From NCBI GenBank assembly GCA_963422735.1, contig OY730476.1, positions 3,488,001-3,552,000 on the forward strand: DNA of 64,000 nt, written 5' to 3'. This stretch comes from Candidatus Latescibacterota bacterium (GTDB lineage Bacteria; Latescibacterota; UBA2968; UBA8231). A model generated the notes under the pieces. The model made no database searches. It saw only the letters and a list, made by a program, of their open reading frames with translations, and was not told the DNA's origin. Positions 19,061 through 62,484 of the stretch are shown here, one piece after another (the first letter of the stretch is position 1; each line of letters begins with the position of its first letter). Made by a program: the position numbers and the translations under genes.

Positions 19061-19063
19061 GCG

Positions 19064-21698: not shown

Positions 21699-21714
21699 TG
21701 ACAGGAGGAATATC

Positions 21715-22791: not shown

Positions 22792-22798
22792 CGGTCGT

Positions 22799-25657: not shown

Positions 25658-25724
25658 GTAGGGGCGCCCCTTGTGGCCGCCCAAAATGCTGGCCCGCCAA
25701 CGGGGCACCCACAATTGCCCCTAT
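25658..25724. repeat. GTAG-family REP-like palindromic element
   Basis: GTAGGGGCGCCCCTTGTGGCCGCCC ... GGGCACCCACAATTGCCCCTA inverted pair immediately after the TonB receptor stop. Confidence 0.7.
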
Positions 25725-27781: not shown

Positions 27782-27850
27782 GGTGCGACTCCTGTAGGAA
27801 GGGGTGAGTAATGCACTCAATTCAGGGAAAGAGAGGAACAGACGTAAGCG

Positions 27851-28759: not shown

Positions 28760-28907
28760 GTTATTATTATATTTAATCTTGCTTGATTAATTAAATAAAT
28801 AAGATTCAACAGAGAACATGCCGAGGCAGTCAGAGAAGAGCCAGCTACTTACCGCCGGTGCTCTAAACAAGTGTTCGCTAAATTACATTATCTGCAAGGA
28901 GAAAACA

Positions 28908-43591: not shown

Positions 43592-44321
43592 GGGTAGGGG
43601 TTGTGGTGCGGACTAGGTGGGCGAAGACCGCTTCGAGACCGGCCCCGGGGATGCCGGCGTCTGCGGCCAACTGTTCGACGCGGCCATCGCCGAGCAAGCG
43701 CCCTTGGTGGATGATCAACACGCGGTCGGCAATGGCTTCGACGTCGCCGATGATGTGGGTGCTAAAGAGGATCGCTCGGCCCGAGCTGAGCGTACGCAAG
43801 GTGTCGCGGAAAGCCAGTACCTGCAAGGGGTCGAAGCCGTGAGTTGGCTCGTCGAGGAGCAAGACCGGCGGATCGTGTACCATGGCGGTAGCCAGGCCGA
43901 TGCGCTGCCGGAACCCGGTGGAGCACTCCTTGACGCGCTGGGTAAGCACGTCTTCGAGCCCGCAGAGCGCGACTGCGCGCGCCAAGCTCCGCTGCAAGGC
44001 GTCGCCTTCGAGTCCGCGGGCTTGGGCGATGAAACGGAGGAACTTATCGACGCGCATCTCTTGGTAGAGCGGAGTGTCGCCCGACAGATAGCCGATGCGG
44101 CGGCGCACGGCCAGCGGGTGCTCCACCACGTCGATCCCGTCGATGGCGATTGTGCCGGCCGTAGGGTGGATAAAAGTGGAGAGCATCTTGAGCATGGTGC
44201 TCTTGCCGGCACCATTCGGGCCAACAAAGCCAACGATCTCGCCTTGATCAACGGCGAAGCTGACCTCGTCAACCGCGGTCAAAGTACCGTAGCGGCGGGT
44301 GACGGATTCTACGCGGATCAT
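43584..44321 (-). CDS. GldA-like ABC ATP-binding protein
   Basis: GPNGAGKST, CSTGFRQRIGLA, LDEPTHGFDP. Confidence 0.9.
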   Translation of the reverse strand: MIRVESVTRRYGTLTAVDEVSFAVDQGEIVGFVGPNGAGKSTMLKMLSTFIHPTAGTIAIDGIDVVEHPLAVRRRIGYLSGDTPLYQEMRVDKFLRFIAQARGLEGDALQRSLARAVALCGLEDVLTQRVKECSTGFRQRIGLATAMVHDPPVLLLDEPTHGFDPLQVLAFRDTLRTLSSGRAILFSTHIIGDVEAIADRVLIIHQGRLLGDGRVEQLAADAGIPGAGLEAVFAHLVRTTTPTHV

Positions 44322-44333
44322 CTGCGGGTACAA

Positions 44334-45523: not shown

Positions 45524-45566
45524 AAGAGAAGCGTTGCCCTGCTTCCGTACCCTAGATGTCGCTTTA

Positions 45567-47024
45567 ATGAGGATCGTGTCAGAAGCCGACCCCTATCCCG
45601 GCCCCAACGAGGAAGTGCTGGCCGCGCAAGCACGCGTCTGTACCGGGCCGCACCAGAGCCGCCCGCTGGGCAAAAAAGAGGGCGACCCAGACCCTCGGCG
45701 CATTCTGGAGCTAGTTTTCGCTTCGCTCAAGGGGGCCTTGCCCCGTGCAGAGCAGGTTTCCCCGGCCCAGATGGGCGCATTTTTCGCGGCGATGTCCATC
45801 CGCCGCACCTTCGGTGCGCAGACCGGTTGGAGCGCAGCCGAGGTCGAGGCGTTTGACCGCTATGGGGACGCGCTGGCGCAGATGCCCGAGGATTTGCGCT
45901 TCTTGCTGGGGATGGAACCTGATTTTGCCGGCCGCGGTGCGGGTGAAGCGCGGGTGGTTGCGGCTCTACGCCCGGTTTTGCAGGGCGAGCATTTGCTTTA
46001 TGAGGAAGTGCGCGATGCGCTCGGGGCCATGCTAGCGGGCGCGGTGCGCCCCTCGCTGATGGCCGCGTTCTTGATCGGCCAGCGGATGAACATCGAAGAT
46101 GCGGAAGAAATTCGCGCTCATCTCGACGCTGTGCTTCCCTCAGAGCAGGTGTTCGCTCTGCAAGTGGAGGCACTGACGCATTTTGGCCAGCCCTTTGACG
46201 GCGCGACGCGTTTCTTCCGCCCGACGCTCTTCGTCGCTGCCGTGCGCGCGGCCTTGGGCCGGGCGACCGTGCTACACGGCGTCGCCGAAATGCCGCCCAA
46301 GCGCGGAGTCACCGAGGAAGGGATACTAGCGGCCTTGGGTGCGCGGGTCGATCTGTCGCTGGCGTCGGCGGCCCGTTGCATCGAAGACCCGGCCGTTGGG
46401 TTCGCATACGTGAGTCAGCGCGCGTACGCCCCCCGCGCGTACGCGTTGCGTCATTTGCGCACCCACATTGCCAAACGCCCGCCTTGGGCCACTACTGAGA
46501 AGGCACAGCAGTTGTTTGCCGGCGCGACTTGGAACGGCATGATTGCGGGCTTTTACCACCTTGGCTACGAAGACAAGCTGTTGGGGTTGATGCAGGAGCG
46601 TGGCTTAGACGCGGGGCTGGCGATCAAGGGTGAGGAAGGGAGTAGCCACTACGGGTTGCGCTTGGGCAAGTCCTCGGACGCTCGGCGCAAGGCCATCAAC
46701 TACGTGCAGGGATTCCGCCGCGTTGGGGGCCGGTTGGAGACGGTGGCCGGCGACGTGAACCCAAGAGCCTACGGTTTTCGCTACGAGCAAAGCCCGCGTC
46801 CTGCGGAGGTGAGTGCGCGGGCTTTTGCCGCATTGGGCGTGGCGGCACTCAAGGGCGAGCAGGGGCCTGTTCGCGACCGCATAGTACTCAACGCGGGCTT
46901 GACCGACTACTATCTGGGCCTAAGTGCGAGTGCCGAAGAGGGGTTGGTCGAGGCGCGGAGGGCTATGGATAGCGGCCGGGCACTGGCGCATCTGGAGCGT
47001 TATATCAGCCAGTCGTGCGATTAG
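45567..47024 (+). CDS. Anthranilate phosphoribosyltransferase-like (TrpD/YbiB-like) protein
   Basis: Duplicated N-terminal helical domain (AQMGAFF, MAAFLIGQRM), GQPFDG, LHGV..MPPKRG, KGEEG, LNAG...A..SGRA. Confidence 0.75.
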   Translation: MRIVSEADPYPGPNEEVLAAQARVCTGPHQSRPLGKKEGDPDPRRILELVFASLKGALPRAEQVSPAQMGAFFAAMSIRRTFGAQTGWSAAEVEAFDRYGDALAQMPEDLRFLLGMEPDFAGRGAGEARVVAALRPVLQGEHLLYEEVRDALGAMLAGAVRPSLMAAFLIGQRMNIEDAEEIRAHLDAVLPSEQVFALQVEALTHFGQPFDGATRFFRPTLFVAAVRAALGRATVLHGVAEMPPKRGVTEEGILAALGARVDLSLASAARCIEDPAVGFAYVSQRAYAPRAYALRHLRTHIAKRPPWATTEKAQQLFAGATWNGMIAGFYHLGYEDKLLGLMQERGLDAGLAIKGEEGSSHYGLRLGKSSDARRKAINYVQGFRRVGGRLETVAGDVNPRAYGFRYEQSPRPAEVSARAFAALGVAALKGEQGPVRDRIVLNAGLTDYYLGLSASAEEGLVEARRAMDSGRALAHLERYISQSCD

Positions 47025-47445
47025 GAATTGATGTTAGGCAGTCGTTGTCGTTTGCGGCTCCCGCGCACGTGGGAATCCAGCAGACAGCTTCGTGTCGGCG
47101 AGGACGCTTTGTGCGTCATTCGCTTACACTCAGTCGAGTCGTCGAGTTGCTCAGCAGTTCGACGGAACTCATCGAAGCCTAAGTCGCCGTGGGCTACTCT
47201 GGATGCTTGCTTGTCACGCCTTGTGGCGCGGTGAAGCGCAGGCATGATCCGTTAGGTAATCGGAAATCGGGATCTCGTGGCGTCTTTTGCGACAGATATC
47301 GGCCAATTCTTCGCGACATGGCACATCTTCGGCCGCTAGCCCCGCGCCGATCCACACGGCCCGATGCCACCAAATCGTGTAATAGGACGCGGCCGAACGG
47401 ATTTGGTAGGCCCTATGTGCCTCACAAGTGCTGCAACGCTGGATA

Positions 47446-49815
47446 CTACCTGCGGAAGAAGTTGCGGAAGTTGAGTCTTTTGTCTGAGAGACGGCCGGCA
47501 CCGGGCACGTACTGGCCGGTTCGAATATGGTCAATAGCGTACGCCGGGAATTCGACCCTGTACAGGCACTGGCCGCTGATTTCAAAGCCATCCCTCCAAA
47601 ATAAGAAGTCGAAGCTGTCGAAGCCGTATTTGAAGCGGTCGCCTTGGAGAACATTGGCATTGGCGGGATACACATGCACGAAGAACTGAACGTCGGGGGC
47701 TTCGCCTTTCGGTTCCTCTCCGCAGCCGTTCGTACCCTTGTTCACATACAACAGGCTATTCTGAGACCAGTACACGGTGTAGTCAGCGGAGTCTATTAGG
47801 ACGCGAGATTTTTTGCGATGGCTCATCCAATACTCCTGATATTCTGGGTTGGTGGCGGCCACCGTCTCGTACAGCTCGGCAAGTGCTCCGTGGATGAGCC
47901 AGTTTTCGGGTTCGCTCCGGACGGCTTGGGCGGCTTGGGCATCCACTAGGGCGAGCAGCTTCTTCGCCTCATTCCGGTGCATATAGATCCTTTGCCATTG
48001 CAGCACCACATTCTCGAAGAGAAGGGTGCGCGGGAGATTCGCCAGCGGCTCGAACTCGGCTGTGAGCCATTCGAAGTGTTCGACGACCTGATCGATGGTC
48101 TGATCTTCCACGCTCATAATTTCGTTCAAGCCGCTGGCCGTGGAGTGAATCGAGTGGTTGGCGTTCAGCCCTACTCCAACCAGCCCCACTGCTGCTAAGG
48201 CGAGAACAGCGCGGGCCCAGTGCCCGACGGCGACCTTTCGGCCAAGCCGGTCGATCCGAGAGGAAATCGACAGTCGAATCCAGCTCTTCTCGCGGCTATT
48301 CTGCGCTTCTAGGTTGGCGACGAAGGCGAGCAGTAGAATGTATTGCAAGGAGCCAGTGGTGGTGTCGAATAGGACCTGTTTTTGCACGAAGTATCCTGCC
48401 AGTGCCGCGCCCACAAATAAAATCAGGGTCTGGTCCTTGGATTCCGCTCCTTTGGCGGCGCGCAGCGCGGCGTAGAACAGGAATCCCCATAAGGCGAGAT
48501 ATCCGAGCAGACCAAGCGTTCCTGTCGTCGCAAGTACCTCGACGAGCTTGGCGTGTGCATAGTCGTGAATCTCTATGTCGACCTCTCCCTTGATATACCG
48601 GCCGAAGACGACAATGAAATTTTCCGGCCCCCAGCCGAGCAGAGGCCTGTCGGCGAAGCCCGCGAGGCCCGACTCCCAGGCCACTATGCGGGCACTAGCA
48701 CTCTCAGCGGCAGTTCGCTTGGGTGCATTTTCGTATGAGCCTACTCTGGACGCGACCATTTTCCCCAAGCGCTTTAGCAATACATTCGAGGATGATCTCA
48801 GATCGCCAAACGGCAGAGACAGAATCAATGCCAGCAGGATCGCGCAGCTAAGGAAACCTGTCGCACCATCAGCGACGCGCTGCACAGGTCTCGAGTGCGC
48901 TAGGTACGAGTACGCCGCTGCCAGAAACGCCAAGGCCATGCCGAGACCGGCGAGTCCCCCTAACGAGCCACTCAGGAAGAGGACCCACAGGCTGAGCAGG
49001 GCCGTGGTCCCCCAGAACAGCCTCGCGGCCCAAAGCATGTCGGGAGAATTCTTTCCGGCTGGCGGTACTTGTTGTCGGCGTCGTTTGCCGCGTTTTTCGG
49101 GCAAAGGTGCCGGCGCGGTCGGGGCCGCGGGAACGAACGACCGCGCCAAGAACCCGACGGCGACCACGAGGTGTACTAGCATGTACGCGCTGAGGTAGGT
49201 TGAATTGCCGAGGGTACCCAATGCCCGCCTATCCATATCGAAGCCGGGGGGCGGCCTCTGCGTCGCCGGGATATCCGGGTAGATCACCAAAATATCCGAG
49301 TAGAACGGCAGACGCACACCGTGGTTGAGCGCGATGACTAGCAGGGCCATGGCCAGGCCGCCGCCGAGATTGAGGTTTAGCAGCAACCGCCACTGGCTCG
49401 GCGTGCGGACCACGGATACCAGCACGACAGCAAGCGCGAACCAGTGCGCCTGATCCACCAAGCCCTGCATCCGTTCATAATTCGACCACAAGCTGCGCTG
49501 CATGCTGACGCCGAAACATGCCGCCAGCACCGAGATGCCCAGCACGACGGCGAGCAGGATCAACAGCCGGGAGCGCGGCGGTCGATACGCAGGATTGAAC
49601 AGGGCCAGTAGGGCCCAGCAGCCGACGACGATCTCGATCAGCGTGCGCGAGAACAGGGCCTTGCCGACCACAAAGGGAAAAATGGTTTCGGGCGTGACGA
49701 TAAAGGGCGTGACGAGGATCAGAGCGAAGCCCGCCCAGACGACGGCGAGCAGGACTTGCTCCGGCCGGCGAAGCGAGGCCGCCAGACCAGAGCTGTGTTT
49801 AGTCGTGGTTCCCAT
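47446..49815 (-). CDS. O-antigen ligase-family (Wzy_C) membrane protein with TPR-like and extra C-terminal domains
   Basis: About 12 TM helices; GTLGNSTYL, SARIVAW...RPLLGWGPENF...DYAH..VEVLATTG; C-terminal FFVHVYP...GFDSFDF...IRTGQY domain. Confidence 0.85.
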   Translation of the reverse strand: MGTTTKHSSGLAASLRRPEQVLLAVVWAGFALILVTPFIVTPETIFPFVVGKALFSRTLIEIVVGCWALLALFNPAYRPPRSRLLILLAVVLGISVLAACFGVSMQRSLWSNYERMQGLVDQAHWFALAVVLVSVVRTPSQWRLLLNLNLGGGLAMALLVIALNHGVRLPFYSDILVIYPDIPATQRPPPGFDMDRRALGTLGNSTYLSAYMLVHLVVAVGFLARSFVPAAPTAPAPLPEKRGKRRRQQVPPAGKNSPDMLWAARLFWGTTALLSLWVLFLSGSLGGLAGLGMALAFLAAAYSYLAHSRPVQRVADGATGFLSCAILLALILSLPFGDLRSSSNVLLKRLGKMVASRVGSYENAPKRTAAESASARIVAWESGLAGFADRPLLGWGPENFIVVFGRYIKGEVDIEIHDYAHAKLVEVLATTGTLGLLGYLALWGFLFYAALRAAKGAESKDQTLILFVGAALAGYFVQKQVLFDTTTGSLQYILLLAFVANLEAQNSREKSWIRLSISSRIDRLGRKVAVGHWARAVLALAAVGLVGVGLNANHSIHSTASGLNEIMSVEDQTIDQVVEHFEWLTAEFEPLANLPRTLLFENVVLQWQRIYMHRNEAKKLLALVDAQAAQAVRSEPENWLIHGALAELYETVAATNPEYQEYWMSHRKKSRVLIDSADYTVYWSQNSLLYVNKGTNGCGEEPKGEAPDVQFFVHVYPANANVLQGDRFKYGFDSFDFLFWRDGFEISGQCLYRVEFPAYAIDHIRTGQYVPGAGRLSDKRLNFRNFFRR

Positions 49816-50061
49816 GATTCCGTCGTGCTGGGATTACCTGTGGGACGCAGTGCTTCTTCGGCCGGATCCGCGTCGGCACCTCGTCGAGGCCCGAGCACTC
49901 CAGCGGCGGAACGCGGTAGCGGTCTGCCGGGACGAGTGGCATTCGCACCTTGCATGCCCCACACCGTGCCGTGCGGAAAGGCGGTCCGGACGAGGTCCCG
50001 ATCGCCCGCCGGCAGGGGCAGGAACGGCCTCCTTCCGGCTTTCCCCAGTTGCTTTGCGCCG

Positions 50062-51447
50062 TCATCTCTTGGCCCCGAGCCCCAGCGCGGACCGGCCTGC
50101 GGCCCACAGGAAGCTGGCGTCGTTGCGCCGCGGCAGCCAGACCGAGGACCAAGCCATTCGAGTCCCTGTGTGGAACGCGATCGCGAGAAGGAGGAAACGG
50201 CACAGCATGCCGAAGGTCATGGCCCAGGCGGCCGCTTCGACTCCGAGCCCTGGGTACAGCGCGAGAAGCGCGCAGAGATTGACGCAAAGCCCTAGGAAAA
50301 CCGCACACGAACAAACATGGGGCAGGTTGGTGCCCTTGAAGTGGGTCATGAATATCCCGGAGAGGGCGTATGCCAGTATGCCGGGCGCGATGATCCACAG
50401 CAACGGGACGGCCGGCAGGAAGGCTTCGGAAAGCGCCAGACGGACCAGCGGTGTGCTGAGCGCGAGAAAGGCGAGGAGGGGAACGACAGTTGCTACGCCG
50501 ACCAAGCGCAGGCAGAGTGCTACCAGCTCGGTGCGCTCTAGGTAGGCGACTCGGGGGAACAAGGCGCTGCCGATGGAATTGGAGACTAGGTTGAATCCTA
50601 GCATCAGCGTGCTGACTGCGGAGAACAGCCCGATTTCGGCTGTGCTCGCGAGCAGTCCCAGAACCACCACGCTGCTCTGGAACTCGACAGCGCTGCCGAC
50701 GCTGGCAGGATGATATTTCAGGCCGTAGCCGACAATACAGGTGAAATGCCGGCGGCTGGGCCACTCCAAGGTCAGCCCACAGTGCCGCCGCAGGTAGAGC
50801 AGGCAGACGGCGAACATGAGGCCGCGCGCGGCGGCGAAGGCGATGACGGCACCATTGACCCCCAAGCCTAAGTGCCAGACGAAAACCAGAATCATTAGCA
50901 CATTCGCCGCGAGGCGGAGCAGTGCCAAGAAAGACAGGCACCGGAAGCGCCGGAGCGCGACCAACTGGTGATCGAGTGCCAGGGAGAGGACCGTGAGGGG
51001 AATCAGCAGGAGGGACAGCAAGAAGGAGGGAGTCTCCGCCTGCTGGAAGAAAGCGATCTCGCTGTGGATGAGCGGGATGGCCAAGGCCGCGGCCAAGCCG
51101 CCCCCGACAAGACCGATCATCAGGGCGGAGGACACCGCTTGCGAGACGCTCATCTGCCTAGCCGCGACGAAATACTGTGCGCCCTGTAGCGCACCGGGAG
51201 TAAACAGCAGCCCGAACAAAGTCCCAAACGCGATGCAGACCGCATAGGCACCCCTCCCTTCAGGAAGGAGCATATAGGCGAGAATCCCCTGAACCAGAAG
51301 AGTCAGAGCGGCCGTGCCGACTAGGGTGGCAAACATCACGGACACGTCCTGCCCGCCGGTGGTGTCCGGGACTTTCAGCGCATCTGCCGCTCTTGGCTGC
51401 GATTCAAAGGTGCGCTTGAAAGGGGGTTCAGTTGGGGGAGCAAGCAT
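50062..51447 (-). CDS. Oligosaccharide flippase (Wzx-like)
   Basis: About 12 TM; LLPEGRGAY, EIGLFSAV, LYPGLGVEAAAWA; alternative start 51336. Confidence 0.85.
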   Translation of the reverse strand: MLAPPTEPPFKRTFESQPRAADALKVPDTTGGQDVSVMFATLVGTAALTLLVQGILAYMLLPEGRGAYAVCIAFGTLFGLLFTPGALQGAQYFVAARQMSVSQAVSSALMIGLVGGGLAAALAIPLIHSEIAFFQQAETPSFLLSLLLIPLTVLSLALDHQLVALRRFRCLSFLALLRLAANVLMILVFVWHLGLGVNGAVIAFAAARGLMFAVCLLYLRRHCGLTLEWPSRRHFTCIVGYGLKYHPASVGSAVEFQSSVVVLGLLASTAEIGLFSAVSTLMLGFNLVSNSIGSALFPRVAYLERTELVALCLRLVGVATVVPLLAFLALSTPLVRLALSEAFLPAVPLLWIIAPGILAYALSGIFMTHFKGTNLPHVCSCAVFLGLCVNLCALLALYPGLGVEAAAWAMTFGMLCRFLLLAIAFHTGTRMAWSSVWLPRRNDASFLWAAGRSALGLGAKR

Positions 51448-51455
51448 ATAAATCC

Positions 51456-52460
51456 TTACTTTGTAAGACGCCCCGGCCAGAAGAAGCCAAACCCCCAGCA
51501 CAGATGCATGACTGCCAGAACTAGCGGAAGCAGTGCGGCCGCCGAGTCACCCCGCCGACATCCCACGATCGCAGACCCAACCACGAGCATCGGAACGTAA
51601 GCAGACAGCAGTGCGGCCAGCAGCCACGGGAAGCCGACCGCCGCCAGCACCGCCCCGGCCGTTAGACCCAGCGCCAGACCGGGAGCGGCAAGCTGTCGGG
51701 GTTGAACCGACCCCGGATGCTTCATAAGCACCACCGACTTCCATCGACCATAATCGAAGTACTGCCGCGCCAGCGCCCAGAGCCTGCCTCGGGGCCTGTA
51801 ATTCACCACCAGTTCGGGGTCGAACCATATAGTCTTCCCGCGCTTTCGCAGTCGGTAGTTGAGTTCGTAGTCCTGGTTTCGGGTCAGGGTGACGTCATAG
51901 CCCCCTATCTCGTCCAGCGTCTCCCGTCGGAACGAACCGAGGAATGCAGTATCGCTGGGTCCCTCCTCTCCCCCTAGACGATGGCGAGAATTGCCCACCC
52001 CCAGCGGCGTGGTCATGGCTATTGCCACGGTCCGCTCGAAAAAGGTGATTCCCACCGCTTGCTGACGGCCGCCCACATTCGCGGCCCCGGTTCGCTCCAG
52101 CGTTTCTACAGCGCGGCCCACGTACTCGGGCGGAAACACCGTATGCGCGTCACATCGCACCACGATGTCTCCGGTCGCCACCCGAAACCCGGCGTTGCAT
52201 CCGTAGCCGAGCGTTTTTTCCGGGTTGGGAATCAACTTCACTTGCGGGTAAGAGCGGCGGATAAGATCGGACATGGCGGGGGTATCGGAGCCATCGGCGA
52301 CTATGATCTCTATCCCTCCGGCATAGTCTTGGGACAACAGCCCATCGAGCGCGGAGGCGATAGTCGCTTCCGAGTTGCGGGCTGGAATGATGACCGATAC
52401 GCTGGGGAGATGAGAGGAGGAGCCACCAGATATCGAGGTCTGTCGATTCGAAGTGCTCAT
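51456..52460 (-). CDS. GT2 glycosyltransferase (ExoA-like)
   Basis: VSVIIPARN, DGSD, RCDAH, NQDYELNYRL, QYFDYGRW. Confidence 0.92.
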   Translation of the reverse strand: MSTSNRQTSISGGSSSHLPSVSVIIPARNSEATIASALDGLLSQDYAGGIEIIVADGSDTPAMSDLIRRSYPQVKLIPNPEKTLGYGCNAGFRVATGDIVVRCDAHTVFPPEYVGRAVETLERTGAANVGGRQQAVGITFFERTVAIAMTTPLGVGNSRHRLGGEEGPSDTAFLGSFRRETLDEIGGYDVTLTRNQDYELNYRLRKRGKTIWFDPELVVNYRPRGRLWALARQYFDYGRWKSVVLMKHPGSVQPRQLAAPGLALGLTAGAVLAAVGFPWLLAALLSAYVPMLVVGSAIVGCRRGDSAAALLPLVLAVMHLCWGFGFFWPGRLTK

Positions 52461-52544
52461 GTATTATCCTATCTTATGCACCTGTTCCCGCTTGCGAAAG
52501 GACAAGTGGGGGCATGACGGGGCTGGTCGGGTTCGTTGCTCGTT

Positions 52545-55500
52545 TCATCGGCCAGGTTTACGCGGGGCTAGGGACAGACGTTGCGCGGAAGGTTCGCCAC
52601 CCGCACCCTCAGACCCCAGCGCACAGCTCAGGCCGGCCAGAAACATGAACGCCCCGAAGGTGAGCAGATCATGATAGTTTACGCCAAACAAGGCCATGAT
52701 CACCGCCCAGCCGACGGCGACATCTCGCGCTAGGGAGCGCGGCGCGGTCCAGCGCAGTCGGAGTAAAAAGAAAAGAAACAGGCAGTAGAGCACCAACGGC
52801 GCAATGCCGGCTTCGCCGAGCAGCATCAGGTACAGATTGTGGATGCCCTCCGGGGATCCCTGCGCATTCTTCAGGTTGCCGGCGAGGCTCTGAGCCGTCG
52901 CCAGACCGCTGCCGACGAAAGGCGATTCTAGCCCCTCTTCGAGGTACTCCTTCCAAATGGAAAAGCGACGAGATGTCAGCACGGCGGTCTGGAGGCTGAA
53001 GTTGTTGCCGGTGAGGCGCAGCGCGAGGTCCTCGCGTATCAGCTCGGGCGGAAAGGGGTCGGTCAGCAGGTTGCTTTCAAGTGCCAGCGTGTTCAGATTG
53101 ACCAGTCTGTCTAGCTCCGGCGGGACGGTGCCGGTGAGTTGGTTTCGGCTCAGGCGCAGCGTGACGAGCTGATCCAAACCGCCGAATTCCGGGGGAATGC
53201 GGCCGTTTAGTCCCTGCTCCGCCAAGTCCAACCTGACCACCTGCCCTGTGCCGCCCACAGTGACGCCCTGCCAGAAGCCGATGGGAACGTACACGCTCCA
53301 GTTGAGGGGCTGGTCGCCGGCTATGATGTCTCTGGCCGTTAGCAAAATCTCGCAGTCGGCCAGCAGGCCCGAGCTAATGGTCGTATGCGAGTCCAGACAC
53401 AACGTTTCGTTTGTCAGGTCTTGGCCGGCAATGCCGAACAGCGCCAACGGAGAGGGGCCAGTCAGGTCGTTGTCCGCCAGCCACAATCCTTGGAGCTTCT
53501 CCAGCTTGCCCAGCTCGGGCGGGATGGTGCCGCTCAGGGCGTTGGTAGTGAGCGACAGTACCTGCAAGTTGGCCAGCTTGCCCAGTTCGGGCGGAATCGG
53601 ACCGGTCAGCCAATTGTTAGCTAGGCGCAGTAGGACAAGCTGGTCGAGGTCGCCAAGCTGCGGGGGAATGCGGCCGTTCAAGTCCATCCCCGGCAGGTTC
53701 AGCGCGACCACCCGTTCTGATGGGCTGCCCACGATGACGCCTTGCCAAGAACCAATGGGAATATCCTCGCTCCAGTTGAGGGACTGGTCGCCAGCCAAGG
53801 CGTCTCTGGCCGCCAGCAGCACATTGCAATCGGCTAGCAAGCCCGTATTGACCTGCCCTACCTGACAGAACGTACCGCGGGCGAAGTCGGATTTGACAAA
53901 CTCCACCCCTGTCAGCGAGCTGCGATGGGGATCTCCAGTTATGAGGCCGAAGGCCTGCCCCCCGAAGGCTTCTAGCTTGGGCGGAACGGAGCCGGTCAGG
54001 CGGTTTTCCGCCAACCACAAGTCCGTGAGCTTCTCCAGCTTGTCCAGTTCGGGCGGGATGGTGCCGCTCAGGACGTTGGCACCGAGCGACAGCACCTGCA
54101 AGTTGGCCAGCTTGCCCAGTTCGGGCGGAATCGGACCGGTCAGCCGATTGGTGGCCAATAACAGCAGGGTGAGTTGGTCGAGGTCGCCAAGCTGCGGGGG
54201 AATGCGGCCATTCAAGCCCATCCCCGGCAAGCCCAGACCGACCACCCGGACCGGGGGTACATTGCCCACGATGACGCCCTGCCAGAAGCCAATAGGGATA
54301 TCCTCGCTCCAGTTGAGGGGCTGGTCGCCAGCCAAGGCGTCTCTGGCCGCCAGTAGCACATTGCAATCGGCGAGCAAGCCCGTATTGACCTGTCCTACCT
54401 GGCAAAACAGGTTTTCGGCAGAGACGACTTCGATATTAGCAGACGCGGGCAGGGGAATCCGGAGCCGCTCGGCACCAGCGGCGACATCGACTTCAGTCGG
54501 TTCCCGCAGGGGAATATAGGGCTGCTTGGCAACAACGGTGGCATCGACTAAGGGGGCAAATTTTTCCAGCGCGGGCGGGAGAGTTCCGGTCAGGTAATTG
54601 TTCGCCAGCCACAGGTTTTTGAGGTTTTTCAGGTTGGCTAACTCGGGCGGGAGAGTTCCGGTCAAGTGATTGTTGGTCAGGCGCAGCGTTGCGAGTTGGT
54701 CGAGGTCGCCAAGCTGCGGGGGAATGCGGCCGTTCAAGCCCATCCCCGGCAGGCTCAGCTCGGTCACCCGCCCCTGCGGACCGTCCACGCGAACACCCTG
54801 CCAGACGTCGATGGGAACGACTCTGCTCCAGTTGAGGGGCGCGTCGCCGGCTAGGGTGTCTCTGGCCCCCAGCAGAATCTCACAGTCGGCCAGCAGACCC
54901 GGGCTGGTCTGCGGCAGCGGCAGGCAGAACTCGAAGCGGTTCAGGTCGCGACCCAGGGTCAGATCGCGCAGCGGCCACAAGCCACTGGCTACGGTCGCGT
55001 ACCAGGCAGAGCCGACTAGGCCCATAGCAACCGAACCGAGGAAAAAGAGGTTCCATTTGCGCCCGCCATTGCACAGCGGTAGGAAAACCAGAATCCCGCA
55101 CACCACCAAGAGGGCGGTTCTGGAAAACGACACCATGGCCGCGACACAGCCCACGGCCAAGCCAAAATAGCCGAACCTGCCCTGCCTGCTGTGCGCCAGC
55201 AGTGCCAGCACCAGCACCACTGTCATGCAGCCTATGAAGCCCGCGTCATTCGGGTCGGTGAAGGCGCCGCTCAAGCGAAAGGGCAGTCTGAAGGTCAGCA
55301 GTATGTCCCAATAACGCAGCAGCGGCGTGGCCAGCACGACGAGACAGCTTGCGAGCAGGATCGCCAGCACCCCCTTGAGCAAGGACTCGGCTCCGGTTCG
55401 CGCCAGAATCATGCGGCCGCCGAGCAGGGCCGCCAGCAGCACGAGGAGGAAGAAGATTTGGCGCAGGATGTCTTTGCCCGTAGCCAGCCGCCATTGCGCG

Positions 55501-55829
55501 TCCGTGATGAATAAGGCAGCGGTGCCGATGACCAGATAGGCCGCTATCGCGGCGCAGATCAATACGCCGGGCGTTTCCAGTATCTCCTGCCATCGGGTGC
55601 CGCTCAGACCCAGCAGGATCAGACAACAGACGAGCATGAAGCCGTAGCCGACCTCCCGCATCGCCGGCATCCCCCATAGATGCAGCCAGTGCAGATTGAC
55701 CAGAACGATGGCGGTTAGCCCCCAAAAAGCGTATGGGGCTAACCGGAGCCAGGGAGGCTCGGGGTGCCGCCCCGACGATCCGGCACCCCGGATCCTGAAG
55801 CGTTTCTCTTTCGGTCGGTCGGGTGTCAT
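52545..55829 (-). CDS. O-antigen ligase/polymerase-family protein with four inserted plant-type LRR modules
   Basis: N-terminal TMs with RLSGAFTDPNDAG and SFSRTA; about 640 aa of LRRs; then RRFSIW...PFVGSG...HNLYLMLLGEAG plus TMs. Confidence 0.9.
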   Translation of the reverse strand: MTPDRPKEKRFRIRGAGSSGRHPEPPWLRLAPYAFWGLTAIVLVNLHWLHLWGMPAMREVGYGFMLVCCLILLGLSGTRWQEILETPGVLICAAIAAYLVIGTAALFITDAQWRLATGKDILRQIFFLLVLLAALLGGRMILARTGAESLLKGVLAILLASCLVVLATPLLRYWDILLTFRLPFRLSGAFTDPNDAGFIGCMTVVLVLALLAHSRQGRFGYFGLAVGCVAAMVSFSRTALLVVCGILVFLPLCNGGRKWNLFFLGSVAMGLVGSAWYATVASGLWPLRDLTLGRDLNRFEFCLPLPQTSPGLLADCEILLGARDTLAGDAPLNWSRVVPIDVWQGVRVDGPQGRVTELSLPGMGLNGRIPPQLGDLDQLATLRLTNNHLTGTLPPELANLKNLKNLWLANNYLTGTLPPALEKFAPLVDATVVAKQPYIPLREPTEVDVAAGAERLRIPLPASANIEVVSAENLFCQVGQVNTGLLADCNVLLAARDALAGDQPLNWSEDIPIGFWQGVIVGNVPPVRVVGLGLPGMGLNGRIPPQLGDLDQLTLLLLATNRLTGPIPPELGKLANLQVLSLGANVLSGTIPPELDKLEKLTDLWLAENRLTGSVPPKLEAFGGQAFGLITGDPHRSSLTGVEFVKSDFARGTFCQVGQVNTGLLADCNVLLAARDALAGDQSLNWSEDIPIGSWQGVIVGSPSERVVALNLPGMDLNGRIPPQLGDLDQLVLLRLANNWLTGPIPPELGKLANLQVLSLTTNALSGTIPPELGKLEKLQGLWLADNDLTGPSPLALFGIAGQDLTNETLCLDSHTTISSGLLADCEILLTARDIIAGDQPLNWSVYVPIGFWQGVTVGGTGQVVRLDLAEQGLNGRIPPEFGGLDQLVTLRLSRNQLTGTVPPELDRLVNLNTLALESNLLTDPFPPELIREDLALRLTGNNFSLQTAVLTSRRFSIWKEYLEEGLESPFVGSGLATAQSLAGNLKNAQGSPEGIHNLYLMLLGEAGIAPLVLYCLFLFFLLRLRWTAPRSLARDVAVGWAVIMALFGVNYHDLLTFGAFMFLAGLSCALGSEGAGGEPSAQRLSLAPRKPGR
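52995..54930 (-). repeat. Four LRR modules (C..GLLADC..LL.ARD.LAG...LNWS...W.GV cap plus 24-aa L.G.IPP.L repeats)
   Basis: Modules 2 (about 53975-54410) and 3 (about 53455-53870) are highly similar at the DNA level. Confidence 0.9.
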
Positions 55830-56005
55830 CCGGATGAACCCGGGGCGGAGATCGTCTTCACGGGGCAGCGAAGATGTTCAACAAAATTGTGCAGCGTCAG
55901 GACGAATCCTCCCATCCCCTATCTTGTAGTTAGAAGCCTTTCTTTGCTTGCATGGGCGAGCCTATTTCTCCGCAATCAGTCTGATGTTCAGAAGCATCGG
56001 ACCTA

Positions 56006-56815
56006 TTAGCAAGTGGCGCTGGCGCGCCAGCCAATGATCGAGGCGACCGGGCAAGTCCCGATAGCGTTTTCCACGCTCCGCACCAGGCCTACTCGGCAAC
56101 GAAAGTGCCATCGGGGAATCCCGACCACGGCGCGGAGGCGTCGGAAACCGATGTCGCGGAACATGGTCTCCACCTCGCCGTAGGTGTACTCTTTCAAGTG
56201 AAATCCGGTCGCAATGGTATCGAAGTATCGTGAAACGTCACAGGGACCGCGGAGCCGATTCGGCGTACTACAGAAATAGTGCCCGCCAGGCTTGAGCACC
56301 TTGTAAACATTGTGAAAGTGTTCTACGGAGTCGTCGGGATGCAAATGCTCCAGAAGCTGATCGCTGAAGGCAAGGTCGATGGTCTTCGGCGGAACCGGGA
56401 TGCTGACGCCATCCGAGAGCACGAATTTCAGATTCCCCTCCGGGGCCGCGCGTGATCTCAAAGCAAAGGTCACATCAACGGCATAGACCTGCCTGACGCG
56501 GTTCGCAACGCGCCGGCTCAGGGCACCTCCACCCGCCCCGATTTCCAAGAAGGTCATATCGGGCCCAAGCATGGGTTCGAGCCAGCGCATTTGCCCAAGC
56601 ACGTTCCGGCGCTCCACGTCCGGGTTGTCCCGCTCCAGGACCTGGGGATGATCGGGAACACGGGCAAATAGCTCATCGTACACGGCTGAATAGAGCACCC
56701 GCCGTTCCGGCTTGCTCGCGTTCTTAAGTTTGGTGGCAAGCACTTTTTCGATCTCATAGTGCTCACGGATGTGGTCCTTTGATCGTTTCTTGGTAAAATA
56801 GTTAGGGAATATCAT
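56006..56815 (-). CDS. Class I SAM-dependent methyltransferase
   Basis: LEIGAGGG, QLLEHL, VLKPGG...STPN, HLKEYT; the C-terminus may be eroded. Confidence 0.88.
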   Translation of the reverse strand: MIFPNYFTKKRSKDHIREHYEIEKVLATKLKNASKPERRVLYSAVYDELFARVPDHPQVLERDNPDVERRNVLGQMRWLEPMLGPDMTFLEIGAGGGALSRRVANRVRQVYAVDVTFALRSRAAPEGNLKFVLSDGVSIPVPPKTIDLAFSDQLLEHLHPDDSVEHFHNVYKVLKPGGHYFCSTPNRLRGPCDVSRYFDTIATGFHLKEYTYGEVETMFRDIGFRRLRAVVGIPRWHFRCRVGLVRSVENAIGTCPVASIIGWRASATC

Positions 56816-56845
56816 TTAGTCGCTCGGTGCGGAGTCCGTATTCAC

Positions 56846-57925
56846 TCACAGGCCGCGCAGGTCCTCGGCCACGCTGTCGTACCAGTGTGCGCTGCGGAAG
56901 CGATCCCCCCGCCGTTTGGCGCCCTCGCACAACCGCCGGTACAGCTCGGGGTCCGCCATCAGCCGCTCGATGGCAGACTTGAGCTCAGCGGCGGAACGGG
57001 GTTCCACAATCAGCCCGCTTTTCTCATGTTCGACCAGCTCGGGAACGCCGCCCCACCGGGCCGCGACGACGGGCAGACCGCACTGAAAGGCTTCCAGAAT
57101 GCTACCGGGATAGCCTTCCCGTCCGCGATAGCTGGGAAACAGCATCAGGTCATGTTCGCTGAGGACCCGTGGCACTTCTGTCGGCTCCAGCACGCCGCCA
57201 TAGGTCGCCCGGGGGTGGCCGTCGAATCCGGAGAGGTCCGTGTCGGACGTACAAGGGCCAAACACATTGAGATGACAATTGTCAGGCAAATGACGGCACG
57301 CCTCCAATGCTTCTGCCAGCCCCTTGTCCATGTGCAGTTGGGCGATAAAGACAAGCCTATTGACTTTCTCACGCCTGACGCAGCTAGGCCCTTCTATATC
57401 TCTCGTATTGGGGAACCAGCGAAAATTGGTCCTGTCGCCGAAGCTGCGGTGCGACTGCTGAGTTTCCACATACACCAAAGCGGAGCGCATGTAGGTCCGG
57501 TCCGCCACCCAGTGCGCCAAAGCCCCATATCCTTGGTAGGTCGCCCCAAAGCCGGACCCGGAAATCCGCAGCACCAAGGGGCGGCGCACCGTTTTGCAGA
57601 TGACCCAGAAAAACGACGCCAGCCCTATCGCCGAATAGGGCGCGATTACCAACATGACCACTTGGGAGTGGCGGAGCTTCTTAGCGGCCCTCCAGACCAC
57701 CCGTAGGAACCTAGTCAAGCGAATGGCCCGGATTTTCCAGGCGGAGAGGTTCGTCACGTGGCCCGAAGTGTCAACGATCTCCAAGTTGAAATCCCGCTGC
57801 CCTAGCTCCCGGAGGAGTTCATTGGCCATCACCTTGTTGCCCCCGATGATGTTGGTATCGGAGTGTCCAGATCTGTGCAGCGGGGCGATGAGCAGGATGG
57901 TCGGTTTTCGATTCTCTTTGGCCAT
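56846..57925 (-). CDS. GT4 glycosyltransferase
   Basis: KGLAEAL, FPS...EGYPGSILEAFQCGLPVVA..GGVPELV. Confidence 0.92.
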   Translation of the reverse strand: MAKENRKPTILLIAPLHRSGHSDTNIIGGNKVMANELLRELGQRDFNLEIVDTSGHVTNLSAWKIRAIRLTRFLRVVWRAAKKLRHSQVVMLVIAPYSAIGLASFFWVICKTVRRPLVLRISGSGFGATYQGYGALAHWVADRTYMRSALVYVETQQSHRSFGDRTNFRWFPNTRDIEGPSCVRREKVNRLVFIAQLHMDKGLAEALEACRHLPDNCHLNVFGPCTSDTDLSGFDGHPRATYGGVLEPTEVPRVLSEHDLMLFPSYRGREGYPGSILEAFQCGLPVVAARWGGVPELVEHEKSGLIVEPRSAAELKSAIERLMADPELYRRLCEGAKRRGDRFRSAHWYDSVAEDLRGL

Positions 57926-58055
57926 GCTCCAAGTTCCTAAGCTCAGTTCTTTCCTATGTGATTAACTGACGTTACAGTAGTTTGTCGCGGACGAACCAGT
58001 CCATGCGGGTGGTCCCAACCGGTGGCCCCCCGGCTGGATGTCACGCCTAAACCAA

Positions 58056-58826
58056 ATCTACCAAGCCCTGCATCCGTTCATACATTCGACTAGCTGACGC
58101 CGAACATGCCGCCAGCACGACGGCCAGCAGCACCCAGCAACCGCCAAAGTACCGGCGTCTTACGTGTGCTCCGACCGCATGGATTTTTCGGGGGGGGGTA
58201 TAAGTAATTATTTTTATTTAACTTATGGCGTTTTATTGGCTTGCCGCCGGCAGAGGCTTCATCGGCCTCGAGAATGCCGTGTAGCAACCTAGCCCCGGGC
58301 GGGGTACGGAGGCGATGCTGCATGGAAAGGGCTATCTGGTGGGGCAAATCAAGAAAGCGGGCAAGCTCGTAGCTGGAGAGACTTTTCTTGGCATTGACCA
58401 TCAACCCGATAGCCATAAGCCATTCTTGAAGGGGTGCCTTTGTTTTGCTTAGGACGGTACCAGATAGCACATTAAAACTTGACCGACAATCGCGGCAATT
58501 CCAACGGCCCACGCGGTTGCCATCTATCTTTCGCTCTACTTTCTCGCTTTCGCAATGCGGACAAGTAGTAATGCCACCCCAACGAATCTCTTCAAGATGG
58601 GCAATGCAAGCTTCTTGGCTGAGAAAGAGCGAAAAGATGGTACTCAAATTCATGGTTTAGCCCCCCCTGACTATAGGTATAAGATAACTCATAGCCTTCG
58701 GCAGTGTAAAGCCCATAAGCTGCTATTCCGACCGCCAATGATCTCGATCCGTGTGCGCGAGTACAGTGCTTTGTCGGCCACGAAGAAAAAAATGGTTTCG
58801 GGCGTGACGAGGATCGGAGCGAATGC
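58056..58826 (-). pseudogene. Decayed copy of the 5' part of the 47446-49815 ligase gene, split by the IS1595 remnant
   Basis: 58056-58147 matches about 49453-49625 with deletions; 58731-58826 matches about 49625-49730. Confidence 0.8.
58148..58730 (-). mobile_element. Truncated IS1595-family transposase (ORF starts 58653)
   Basis: EACIAHLEEIRW..CPHC...CRDC..F.V.SGT, KKSLSSYELAR, EADE..GG...KTPV; lower GC; flanked by the 8-bp direct repeat ACCGCCAA. Confidence 0.85.
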
Positions 58827-59010
58827 ATGAAGAGGGGCGTCCGAAAGCCCCTGAGCACATTCTTGCTTCAGTTCATCAAGCTCGAAACCCTGAAAACTAT
58901 CTAGTGCATATATTTTCCTCGGGATCCCGATCCTATCCACGTACCGGGCCATCATAATCGACGTTCCGCACCTCGCCGGGCCGCCGATGTCGTCTCCTTG
59001 AATCCACTAT
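58827..59010 (-). pseudogene. Fragment of a TylF/MycF-like O-methyltransferase
   Basis: GDI...RCGTSIMMARY...RKIYALDSFQGF fused to the ligase remnant. Confidence 0.5.
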
Positions 59011-61932: not shown

Positions 61933-62484
61933 ATGACAATTGTCGAACATATTGCCACGGCGGCGGACTTGGAGCGACTACCGGACGATGGGTTTCGCTA
62001 CGAATTAGTGTGTGGGGAGGTGCGTAAGATGACGCCAGCGGGCAATGAACACGGAAGAATCGCCGCGTTAGTAACGGCATCGCTAGTACAGCACGTGCTG
62101 GCCAACCGACTCGGATCAGTGTATGCGGCGGAAACGGGTTTCCGGCTGGCGTCGAACCCGGATACGGTGCGGGCACCGGATGCGGCTTTTGTGTGCCAAG
62201 CGCGGCTGGATGCGGTGGGCGCGGTGGCCGGCTATTGGCCGGGAGCGCCCGATTTGGCGGTGGAGGTGGTCTCGCCCGGGGATCGCTACGGGGAGGTCTC
62301 GGAAAAGGCGGCTGCTTGGCTGGCGGCTGGGACGCAAATGGTGGTGGTCGTCGAGCCGCGGCAGCGCACGGTGGCGGTGCATCGCGTTGACAGTGCCATT
62401 CGCACCTTGGGAGAAGGCGATGTGCTGGAGGGAGGGACGGTGGTACCGGGGTGGGCCGTGTCGGTCGCGGCGTTGTTTACCTAG
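61933..62484 (+). CDS. Uma2-family endonuclease
   Basis: RYELVCGE, AETGF, VRAPDAAFV, APDLAVEVVSP. Confidence 0.92.
   Translation: MTIVEHIATAADLERLPDDGFRYELVCGEVRKMTPAGNEHGRIAALVTASLVQHVLANRLGSVYAAETGFRLASNPDTVRAPDAAFVCQARLDAVGAVAGYWPGAPDLAVEVVSPGDRYGEVSEKAAAWLAAGTQMVVVVEPRQRTVAVHRVDSAIRTLGEGDVLEGGTVVPGWAVSVAALFT

Follow-up and report, generated by a model that had tools for sequence, protein, structure and literature searches.

An LRR-bearing gene within a glycan locus

The gene analysed here lies on the minus strand of a 64,000-nucleotide stretch of Candidatus Latescibacterota DNA (the window), part of a host genome assembled as one contig of 4.95 Mb with an estimated completeness of 95%. 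Its reading frame opens with an ATG codon, is uninterrupted by stops over 1094 amino acids, and specifies nine transmembrane (TM) helices, about 660 residues containing four capped, plant-type leucine-rich repeat (LRR) modules, a remnant of a catalytic loop and three final TM helices (Table 1). An earlier note had placed this ORF in a GT4-methyltransferase-GT2-flippase-ligase locus, a context that holds: a GT4, a methyltransferase, the target, a GT2, a Wzx-like flippase and a second Wzy_C protein are all encoded on the minus strand, the last of these falling outside the target's subfamily. The cassette has a GC content of 0.610, the 77th percentile of the genome, and thus bears no compositional sign of recent transfer. 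A promoter and terminator scan of positions 47000-59000 gave counts that were not above those of shuffles (2 against 3.1, and 15 against 9.9, sd 3.0), so that operon boundaries cannot be drawn. Tandem Repeats Finder returned 0 rows for the target gene, the modules being too diverged or too long in period at the DNA level.

Table 1. Genes of the locus and parts of the target protein, with positions in the window.
Feature	Residues	Coordinates	Strand	Remarks
GT4 glycosyltransferase		56846..57925	(-)	beside family members in 28/46 related loci, median 67% identity
SAM-dependent methyltransferase		56006..56815	(-)	locus-specific: in 0/46 related loci at 45% identity or above
LRR-bearing WaaL-fold ORF (Wzy_C family)		52545..55829	(-)	1094 aa; stop codon 52545-52547
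N-terminal core	1-281	54987..55829	(-)	K/R-rich cytoplasmic tail, then TM1-TM9
Outward loop in N-terminal core	R181/R185/G188/F190/D192-P-N	R185 codon 55275-55277	(-)	
S236-R motif in N-terminal core	S236	codon 55122-55124	(-)	
Segment from TM9 to first cap	282-301	54927..54986	(-)	low model confidence; conserved 70-95% in four orthologues, 60% in more distant P0007
LRR module 1	302-426	54552..54926	(-)	Cys-pair cap + 3 repeats
Linker 1	427-475	54405..54551	(-)	pLDDT <50 over 427-458; conservation 22-48%
LRR module 2	476-628	53946..54404	(-)	cap + 4 repeats; 81% identity to module 3
Linker 2	629-654	53868..53945	(-)	
LRR module 3	655-794	53448..53867	(-)	cap + 4 repeats
Linker 3	795-810	53400..53447	(-)	
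LRR module 4	811-945	52995..53399	(-)	cap + 3-4 repeats; ends 9 residues before conserved Arg
C-terminal core	946-1094	52548..52994	(-)	outward helices, then TM10-12
C-terminal core residues	R955; P970/G973/G975; H997-N998; E1006	R955 codon 52965-52967; H997 codon 52839-52841	(-)	
GT2 glycosyltransferase		51456..52460	(-)	hydrophobic C-terminal tail (by eye); in 22/46 related loci
Wzx-like flippase (Polysacc_synt)		50062..51501	(-)	in 29/46 related loci
Second Wzy_C protein		47446..49815	(-)	789 aa; unsplit Wzy_C 53 bits; long C-terminal extension; weak homologues in 15/46 loci

The earlier note had raised the concern that the architecture might be chimeric; both junctions are in fact bridged by zero-difference contigs from other runs, the junction of module 4 with the C-terminal core at 52626-53589 (X1, X6) and 52814-53589 (X3), and that of the N-terminal core with module 1 by a single contig at 54875-55137 (X6). 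The repeat-rich LRR interior is broken up in short-read contigs, with short fragments and many loose ends and joints, as might be seen had an assembly chimera or frame artefact fused an LRR gene with a split ligase gene; coverage of the interior consists of short fragments only, and gaps there prove nothing. The single-contig assembly of the genome, the recurrence of the architecture in other assemblies (four modules laid out alike in P0003-P0007) and the placement of every insert in the family at one profile position also speak against such an artefact, the probability of which we consider negligible.

A WaaL-fold core with an expanded catalytic loop

On the whole target, the Pfam Wzy_C profile scores 25.0 bits, below its gathering cut-off of 31.7, and aligns residues 951-1016 with profile positions 80-149; the C-terminal piece alone reaches 31.5 bits against the same cut-off, the domain being split by the insert, and the N-terminal 310 residues alone match no Pfam family. 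A six-frame search of the genome nonetheless placed both halves of Wzy_C in the frame of the target (profile 2-64 at residues ~223-285 and 78-149 at ~949-1016). The uninserted relative P0020, which is 50% identical to the target over both core halves, carries an unbroken Wzy_C domain (56.6 bits, profile 3-148), and P0022, P0023, P0039 and P0042 score 43-52 bits. To judge from these alignments, the target is homologous to bona fide Wzy_C members across the whole domain. The intact Wzy_C scaffold described in the earlier note is borne out by a 65-sequence family alignment, in which every motif is found and is invariant or nearly so: R955, P970, G973, G975, H997, N998, L1001 and G1008 are invariant, and R185, G188, F190, P193, N194, S236 and E1006 are each present in at least 90% of sequences.

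Foldseek with the whole 1094-residue model yielded LRR ectodomains alone among the matches listed, and the core fold was tested through uninserted P0020 rather than through the target's own core. Superposition of the P0020 model (pLDDT 85.6) onto WaaL (7tpj_B) gives a Z-score of 23.2 and an rmsd of 4.3 Å over 347 of 403 residues (Foldseek E 7.8e-6), with FtsW and RodA as the next-best structural matches at Z 13-14; the target's own model has the 9 + 3 helix order of the WaaL fold. Comparison of the family profile with PDB sequences returned WaaL as its sole match (E 1.6e-8), equating R955 with the Arg of WaaL VRLKIW and H997 with the His of AHND; phmmer of P0020 against the same sequences gave chance matches to ATP synthase gamma only (E 0.15 or worse). 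These data show that the target is a glycosyltransferase of the inner membrane, that it has the WaaL/Wzy_C (GT-C_B) fold and that its catalytic-type residues are intact. Because no Wzy structure occurs among the PDB matches, fold and residues do not separate a ligase from a polymerase.

The size of the insert was estimated in two ways. BLASTP against P0020 aligns target residues 21-263 and 955-1084, with 83 residues of P0020 (250-332) giving way to 691, and the base-form HMM places 657 residues between positions 289 and 947. Pfam detects LRR_1 (E 8.5e-28), LRR_4 (9e-20) and LRR_8 (1.6e-16) in the target; four caps, beginning at residues 302, 476, 655 and 811, hold exactly two Cys each (C-x13-15-C), and 11 repeats match the strict 24-residue plant-type pattern LxxLxLxxNxLxGxIPxxLGxLxx, with a per-position conservation that fits the consensus. 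Pfam, the P0020 alignment and the cap positions agree with the four capped modules that the earlier note had read inside the catalytic loop, and the outward orientation it had proposed for them is likewise upheld by homology to the WaaL periplasmic loop, by a charge bias (the N-terminal tail is K/R-rich and the loop acidic, with 48 KR against 75 DE) and by the paired Cys of each cap. Four plant-type LRR modules, each folded independently and bearing its own Cys cap, and the flexible linkers that connect them have thus expanded the loop that leads from TM9 to the catalytic Arg/His helices.

Sequence comparison indicates that the LRR modules are under purifying selection. Among the four closest orthologues, the modules are 63-79% identical, the core 65-72% and the linkers 26-50% (values are lower for the more distant P0007); in 6 orthologues, every one of the four modules keeps the Cys pair of its cap, and the four-module layout is orthologous position-for-position in six proteins. 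These observations argue against the view that the loop is simply a permissive site in which LRR modules ride along, tolerated but without a specific function, since the modules are conserved at a level equal to or above that of the catalytic core while the linkers drift. That view draws on the many kinds and lengths of insert found at this site, which include an Ig-like domain (a SCAB-Ig match in P0046) and acidic repeats as well as LRRs; we consider it improbable. Conservation of the concave LRR face does not exceed that of the convex one (0.55 against 0.59), and hence there is no clear signature of one fixed ligand.

Family distribution and the acceptor question

The target family is small, with 126 representatives among 1.84 billion. 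LRR modules occur at the same loop site in 38 of 134 full-length family sequences, and their number varies between 1 and 10 among cores that are closely related; across the family, the site is occupied by anything from 0 to 10 LRR modules or by inserts of other kinds and lengths, and relatives labelled Dehalococcoidia and Caldilineaceae have Ig-like or other inserts there. The uninserted relatives are 459 residues long. Full-text literature searches found the architecture (LRR modules in a WaaL-fold/Wzy_C catalytic loop) in no paper. The target is no isolated case, since it belongs to a family in which such modules recur at one site. Comparison with the ESM Atlas gave a best score of 0.86, to generic Wzy_C clusters, and found no large cluster with the target architecture. 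A family member is present in just 1 of 24 same-genus genomes.

One explanation for such a protein is that it serves as a membrane anchor, displaying LRR modules in the envelope for adhesion, sensing or host interaction, with catalysis secondary or lost. LRRs and other eukaryote-like repeats have been reported as enriched in symbiont genomes; several LRR forms lie apart from any glycan cassette (L001, for example, sits among metabolic genes), and a base form and an LRR form coexist in some genomes (L008/L031, L013/L023). The catalytic-type residues, however, are equally conserved in the LRR forms and in the rest of the family (R185, 37/38 against 95/96; S236, 38/38 against 94/96; R955, 38/38 against 95/96; E1006, 36/38 against 94/96), whereas His997 served as a criterion for selecting family members. 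The target is moreover the sole member of its subfamily in the host genome and lies inside the cassette, and in the family tree all 38 LRR forms carrying a taxon label fall outside the Dehalococcoidia/Caldilineaceae-labelled clade. The host also encodes Omp85 and a TonB-dependent receptor, so an inner-membrane loop would probably be shut off from the outside. We therefore give an anchoring role very little credence.

A search for related loci, conducted with a 16-sequence alignment, provided 46 for comparison, 18 of which contain GT4, GT2 and Wzx together. The linkage is weaker for LRR forms, with GT4 present in 3 of 15 LRR-form loci against 25 of 31 base-form loci. The MAGs in which the GT4-GT2-Wzx cassette accompanies family members bear the labels of more than ten different taxa and include genomes both with and without LpxC; its proteins are 55-72% identical. 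This distribution points to an envelope glycan system that is exchanged horizontally and has an acceptor other than LPS.

The host genome offers a similar indication. LpxC, LpxB, LpxK and Kdo transferase gave 0 matches each in its single contig (estimated 95% complete), whereas control genomes gave matches; tblastn with two LpxC proteins also found nothing in the host genome, although the two find each other at E 1e-48. Among five related genomes searched for LpxC, two gave a match and three did not. These searches suggest that lipid A-core, the usual acceptor of WaaL-type enzymes, is probably missing from the host, so that the target would not be a classical O-antigen ligase and the name "O-antigen ligase", given in the earlier note, probably assigns it the wrong job. 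The nearby Ser/Thr-rich secreted proteins that the note had suggested as acceptors do exist (S+T 14-20%; by eye, the N-termini of two of the three resemble signal peptides), but they are 14-24 kb distant and have homologues in 0 of 46 related loci. They are He_PIG proteins.

The reading that we favor, tentatively and at slightly short of even chances, is that the target is a periplasmic transferase of glycans linked to undecaprenyl pyrophosphate (Und-PP), the LRRs of which would hold an acceptor protein or a partner. The earlier note had suggested that the enzyme may select protein acceptors or be gated by a ligand. In our reading, an oligosaccharide would be started by a phosphoglycosyl transferase whose gene lies elsewhere, GT4, GT2 and the methyltransferase would assemble it on Und-PP as a short methylated chain, and Wzx would flip the product across the membrane. 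The target would then transfer the glycan, at the periplasmic face, to an acceptor other than lipid A-core, as the lack of a lipid A pathway in the genome suggests. The LRR string would form a built-in binding platform that captures the acceptor or a partner protein and keeps it beside the active site, such that the enzyme would work like a PglL/PglS-type O-oligosaccharyltransferase (O-OTase) with its own targeting domain; changes in module number (1 to 10) and swaps for Ig-like or other inserts might tune what is bound. The absence of conserved Ser/Thr-rich neighbors and the looser cassette linkage of LRR forms weigh against this reading, the lipid A argument depends on searches of a genome estimated to be 95% complete, and a conserved flippase with two glycosyltransferases would fit a Wzx/Wzy polymerisation pathway just as well.

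This last point leads to the main rival, a Wzy-type polymerase that joins flipped Und-PP-linked units head to tail into a Wzx/Wzy-dependent surface polysaccharide, with the LRR string acting as a scaffold, as a point of contact with a co-polymerase or an export partner, or as a chain-length ruler set by module number, and with the 789-residue Wzy_C neighbor as the ligase. Polymerases and ligases alike fall under Pfam Wzy_C. A flippase and two glycosyltransferases are precisely the partners that are conserved (Table 1), the second Wzy_C gene, with its weak homologues elsewhere, would allow a polymerase/ligase split, and the range of module numbers on closely related cores would suit a ruler. 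Conversely, a protein-binding fold is odd for handling glycan chains, and no Wzz/PCP gene was found in the locus, the only Wzz match in the genome lying at 0.215 Mb. Mutagenesis of WaaL and PglL points to the His-Asn pair and the downstream Glu as hallmarks of ligases and O-OTases, and the invariant His-Asn of the target family, with its Glu nine residues on, corresponds to the features discussed for these enzymes (PMC12800693). A polymerase appears somewhat unlikely, though a serious candidate.

If the transferase reading is extended to the family as a whole, its members would constitute a new class of targeted periplasmic glycosyltransferases, in which a WaaL-fold core bears exchangeable loop modules of LRR, Ig-like or other kinds that select envelope or secreted proteins for glycosylation, and the device would have passed horizontally, together with the GT4-GT2-Wzx cassette, among co-habiting bacteria of many phyla. 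We regard this extension as doubtful; were it true, unrelated members of one community would share a surface glycan signature.

Comparison with known systems

The LRR modules find their closest likenesses in two groups. Plant LRR receptor-kinase ectodomains have the same 24-residue repeat and supply the top Foldseek matches (ERL1, GSO1, MIK2 and FLS2, E 1e-17 to 1e-16), whereas the best NCBIfam matches, which are partial, are the LRR parts of the bacterial effectors XopAC and XopAE. Compared with plant receptor kinases and with bacterial plant-type LRR proteins (XopAC/XopAE/XopL), the target modules are short, at 3-4 repeats, each with its own cap and two Cys before the helix, and they lack both a kinase and a secretion signal, being embedded instead in the loop of a membrane enzyme. 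The target cap shares a similar helix and a W-x-G-V motif with the plant-type cap but differs in its Cys arrangement, and LRRNT_2, which we take to be the Pfam family of the plant-type N-terminal cap, is absent from the families listed at E<=1, where weak matches may be filtered out. The "eukaryote-type" label of the earlier note is therefore overstated.

Wzy polymerases belong to the same Pfam superfamily as the target and share its genomic company of Wzx and glycosyltransferases; to our knowledge, an invariant His-Asn motif is not a described requirement of Wzy, and a literature search found no LRR-bearing Wzy. The best NCBIfam match to the core is TIGR03097 (PEP_O_lig_1, a putative exosortase A-associated O-glycosylation ligase), but the scores of the target (16.5 bits) and P0020 (24.8 bits) lie below its cut-off of 188.1, and the target is not a member.

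WaaL of Cupriavidus metallidurans (PDB 7TPG/7TPJ) has the 12-TM fold and outward catalytic loop of the target family at ~13-17% identity; the target differs in the ~660 residues of LRR modules inserted just before the conserved Arg and in a host in which the lipid A-core acceptor of WaaL appears to be missing. His and Arg form the catalytic set in WaaL and PglS, O-OTases of the PglL/PglS/PilO type are Wzy_C-containing GT-C_B enzymes that use catalytic His, Arg and Glu to move glycans from Und-PP onto Ser/Thr of proteins in the periplasm, and PglS carries an extra periplasmic domain (PMC12800693). That extra domain is C-terminal and unrelated to LRRs, whereas the LRRs of the target lie inside the loop; no OTase-specific family occurs among its Pfam and NCBIfam matches listed at E<=1, and no OTase structure among the PDB matches. 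How WaaL, Wzy and O-OTase enzymes recognize their acceptors is still poorly understood, and engineered O-OTases are used for conjugate vaccines (PMC12800693). The target family would show that the WaaL-fold catalytic loop tolerates very large grafts, and a natural family that keeps its catalytic residues while carrying 1-10 protein-binding modules or other binding domains in this loop would open acceptor targeting in the WaaL fold to direct study.

A WaaL-type core interrupted by capped leucine-rich repeats

Scanning the LRR-bearing target protein against Pfam returned LRR_1 (E 8.5e-28), LRR_4 (9e-20) and LRR_8 (1.6e-16), together with a split Wzy_C match that, at 25.0 bits, lies below the cut-off of 31.7. 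When segments were scanned alone, the C-terminal 165 residues matched Wzy_C at 31.5 bits (profile 80-149), the 619-residue middle matched LRR families only, and the N-terminal 310 residues gave no Pfam match. A six-frame search of the genome placed both Wzy_C halves (profile 2-64 and 78-149) in the one frame of the target, bearing out the proposal of the earlier note that an LRR insert splits a Wzy_C scaffold. The closest of the 420-480-residue relatives, P0020 (459 aa, a base form lacking the insert), aligns only to target residues 21-263 (50% identity) and 955-1084 (49%), so that residues 264-954 of the target replace 83 residues of P0020. Unbroken Wzy_C matches of 43-57 bits pass the Pfam cut-off in P0020 and in four further relatives (P0022, P0023, P0039 and P0042); P0025 did not pass.

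An AlphaFold model of P0020 (pLDDT 85.6, pTM 0.86) found WaaL as its sole clear PDB match (Foldseek, 7tpg_B, E 7.8e-6). Alignment to WaaL chain 7tpj_B with VIA-align gave Z 23.2 and an rmsd of 4.3 Å over 347 of 403 residues, ahead of FtsW and RodA, which are SEDS proteins and came next at Z 13-14. A profile built from 52 base-form sequences matched one PDB sequence, the same WaaL (E 1.6e-8), and no Wzy or OTase structure was among the PDB matches found. In the profile alignment, the invariant Arg and His of the family (R955 and H997 in the target) line up with those of WaaL; according to PMC12800693, this His and the Arg residues make up the catalytic set proposed for both WaaL and the O-OTase PglS. 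Judged through the base-form relative and the profile, the target core is a predicted WaaL-fold enzyme.

In the target's own model (pLDDT 81.8), residue 281 is preceded by nine helices and residue 999 is followed by three; between these sets lie four well-folded units, with low-confidence linkers at 281-299, 427-458, 630-647 and 795-807. Each unit opens with a cap that holds exactly two Cys residues spaced 13-15 residues apart, followed by three to four repeats of a 24-residue plant-type pattern that eleven repeats meet strictly; the four capped plant-type modules read earlier are thus present in both sequence and model. LRRNT_2, the plant LRR cap family, is absent among the Pfam families listed for the target. 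The N-terminus is rich in Lys and Arg and the loop is acidic (48 Lys/Arg versus 75 Asp/Glu). Because the loop is homologous to the periplasmic loop of WaaL, and given this charge bias and the conserved cap Cys pairs, it is predicted to face outward, in agreement with the periplasmic placing first suggested for the insert.

Conserved residues and a variable loop

Conservation was assessed in 134 full-length sequences, some of which are one gene with different start calls (for example L001/P0006 and L002/P0003, each a locus and a search hit); these remained from 187 after removal of 25 shorter than 400 aa, 22 that lack the HN motif, most of them truncated or frameshifted, and duplicates. R185 is present in 37 of 38 LRR forms and 95 of 96 others, S236 in 38/38 and 94/96, R955 in 38/38 and 95/96, and E1006 in 36/38 and 94/96. 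The invariance of H997 and N998 follows from the way the set was made, the HN motif having been a selection criterion; both are also invariant in a 65-sequence alignment whose rows were likewise chosen for carrying it. Residues of catalytic type are thus kept in LRR-bearing forms as well as in others, and the Arg/His site that the earlier note proposed to check is intact in the target, where R955 and H997 align with those of WaaL; across LRR forms R955 is invariant and R185 and E1006 are nearly so.

Four-module orthologues P0003-P0006, 65-69% identical to the target overall, match its modules position for position, at 63-79% identity in the modules, 65-72% in the core and 26-50% in the linkers; the same correspondence holds in the more distant P0007, with lower identity in all parts. 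By sequence comparison, the LRR modules of the target are under selection. Conservation of the concave LRR face (0.55, versus 0.59 for the convex) is not special. Modules 2 and 3 are 81% identical in the target, with identical caps, and are homogenised within each protein: in the target and P0003-P0006 they are closer within a protein than between orthologues, which suggests gene conversion or repeated duplication.

Searched exhaustively with phmmer against 1.84 billion representatives, target residues 1-310 recovered only 126 proteins at E<=1e-3, 39 of them at 1e-30 or better and most of 420-480 aa. All long members carry their extra sequence at one site, which on the base profile falls between positions ~260-272 and ~285-296. 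The number of capped LRR modules in this loop is 0, 1, 2, 4, 6, 8, 9 or 10, and protein length reaches 2214 aa; in other members the loop holds acidic repeats (P0015, P0016), an Ig-like SCAB-Ig match (P0046) or, in many Dehalococcoidia-labelled members, inserts of 100-250 aa without family assignment. A midpoint-rooted FastTree of the core alone puts the LRR forms in two subclades, one with 1- and 4-module proteins and one with 2 to 10 modules. Several LRR-bearing relatives (P0013, P0018/L004, P0029, P0031, P0043, P0051 and L010) break off within the LRR region or continue into tails that are out of frame, and are either pseudogenes or products of assembly or frameshift errors in repeats. Run X8 holds a variant of the target gene with scattered substitutions and a compensated pair of single-base indels that keeps the frame.

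Distribution and genomic neighbourhood

With each species represented by one genome, scanning yielded 46 family loci in MAGs, labelled Pseudomonadales, Binatia, Latescibacteria, Thermodesulfobacteriota, Paracoccaceae, Gammaproteobacteria, Nitrospirales, Gemmatimonadota, Entotheonella, Bryobacterales, Longimicrobiales, Dehalococcoidia, Caldilineaceae, Tepidiformaceae and Alphaproteobacteria. Such a mix is typical of marine sponge microbiomes. Clades of the core tree mix MAG labels, the target's closest relatives (66-68% identity) come from MAGs labelled Pseudomonadales and Binatia, and a family member occurs in only 2 of 40 genomes related to the window's genome (one of them among 24 genomes of the target's genus; 54-55% identity), a pattern that we tentatively read as horizontal spread.

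Homologues of the window's neighbouring genes (median identity 64-67%) were counted at distances of up to 10 kb from the family gene at the 46 loci, two of which (L019 and L020) are contigs of one MAG with the same region. GT4 was nearby in 28, GT2 in 22, Wzx in 29 and all three in 18; GT4 linkage is stronger for base forms (25/31 loci) than for LRR forms (3/15). In some genomes a base form and an LRR form occur together (L008/L031 and L013/L023). The host genome has a single subfamily member, the target inside the cassette (435 bits versus 34.6 for the next ORF), and an LRR-module HMM matched one other ORF there, outside the window.

Features of the window, the host genome (G000) and related loci
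Feature	Location	Strand	Description
Target ORF	window 52545-55829	-	single ORF, ATG start, 1094 aa, no internal stops
LRR caps	target residues 302, 476, 655, 811		cap starts
Modules 2 and 3	window 53448-54404
Run X8 variant	window 52300-56100		1-base deletion at 54059, 1-base insertion behind 54063
Por_Secre_tail proteins	window 305-2896, 28818-31067, 31114-35151, 35278-38571	+	T9SS C-terminal sorting
TonB-dependent receptor	window 25724-27820
ABC genes	window 38704-44333	-	ABC ATPase, ABC-2 permease, ABC_transp_aux protein (1153 aa) and DUF4340 protein in a row; resembles the GldA/GldF/GldG gliding-motility transporter
Glycos_trans_3N/TrpD-like protein	window 45534-47024	+	496 aa, ~140-aa N-terminal extension; between glycan locus and ABC genes
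IS1595-type transposase zinc ribbon	window 58090-58653	-	187-aa ORF directly upstream of GT4, at cassette edge
Uma2 family	window 61933-62484	+	putative restriction endonuclease, E 2.1e-35
Second LRR ORF	G000:C1:3412615-3415056	-	814-aa frame, one long solenoid, 9 overlapping matches over residues 371-799
Sulfotransferase	L002:17266-18279		between four-module orthologue and its Wzx/GT2 genes (MAG labelled Binatia)
Tandem family/LRR genes (two or three)	L006:9917-13623 and 18167-23186; L007:5509-19375; L009:502-14935		L006: two PMT_2-type GT-C glycosyltransferases downstream, double-GT2 fusion upstream

Envelope, acceptor and comparison with known systems

The host genome (one contig, 4.95 Mb, estimated 95% complete) gave no matches to LpxC, LpxB, LpxK or Kdo transferase, with control genomes positive as expected; tblastn of LpxC proteins from the genomes of two related loci, which match each other at E 1e-48, likewise gave no LpxC-part match in it. 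Six Omp85 matches, the TonB-dependent receptor and T9SS-type sorting domains in the window lead us to take the cell as diderm, possibly one that lacks lipid A. Among five other family-bearing genomes, LpxC was found in two and not in three; the genome behind locus L003 gave no LpxC match. Since the family is present in cells with and without an LpxC match, lipid A-core is an unlikely acceptor, and 'O-antigen ligase', taken strictly, is probably a misnomer for the target in a host genome where no lipid A genes matched.

The acceptors first suggested, nearby Ser/Thr-rich secreted proteins, are real, but no homologue of theirs lies beside the family gene at any of the 46 loci. The four Por_Secre_tail matches score 26.5-28.2 bits, close to the cut-off of 27 bits. 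One protein is heparinase II/III-like and three carry He_PIG/FlgD_ig Ig-repeats, with Ser plus Thr at 14-20%. The last two look like recent duplicates, their N-termini being nearly identical.

Building on the fold, topology, intact catalytic residues, module selection and cassette context shown for the target, we tentatively favor a scheme, somewhat short of an even chance, in which the cassette would build a short Und-PP-linked glycan and flip it, and the target, working at the outer face of the inner membrane, would pass it to a protein or some other non-LPS acceptor, with the LRRs as a built-in clamp for that acceptor or for a partner. Ranked second, and less likely, is a Wzy-type polymerase that would use the LRRs as scaffold or ruler; the target's locus holds no Wzz gene.

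At abstract level, literature on O-antigen ligase, Wzy_C, O-antigen polymerase or PglL with LRRs, and on sponge eukaryote-like proteins, did not yield this architecture, and five relatives looked up bear no source-given protein names. We rate the protein as a recurrent arrangement, apparently undescribed in the literature, of a fold and a repeat that are each known. Likeness to plant receptor-kinase ectodomains is one of LRR fold: the top Foldseek matches shown for the whole target model were all of this kind (among them ERL1, GSO1, MIK2 and FLS2). Likeness to the Xanthomonas proteins XopAC and XopAE, the best NCBIfam matches, is limited to their LRR parts, at scores far under the cut-offs.
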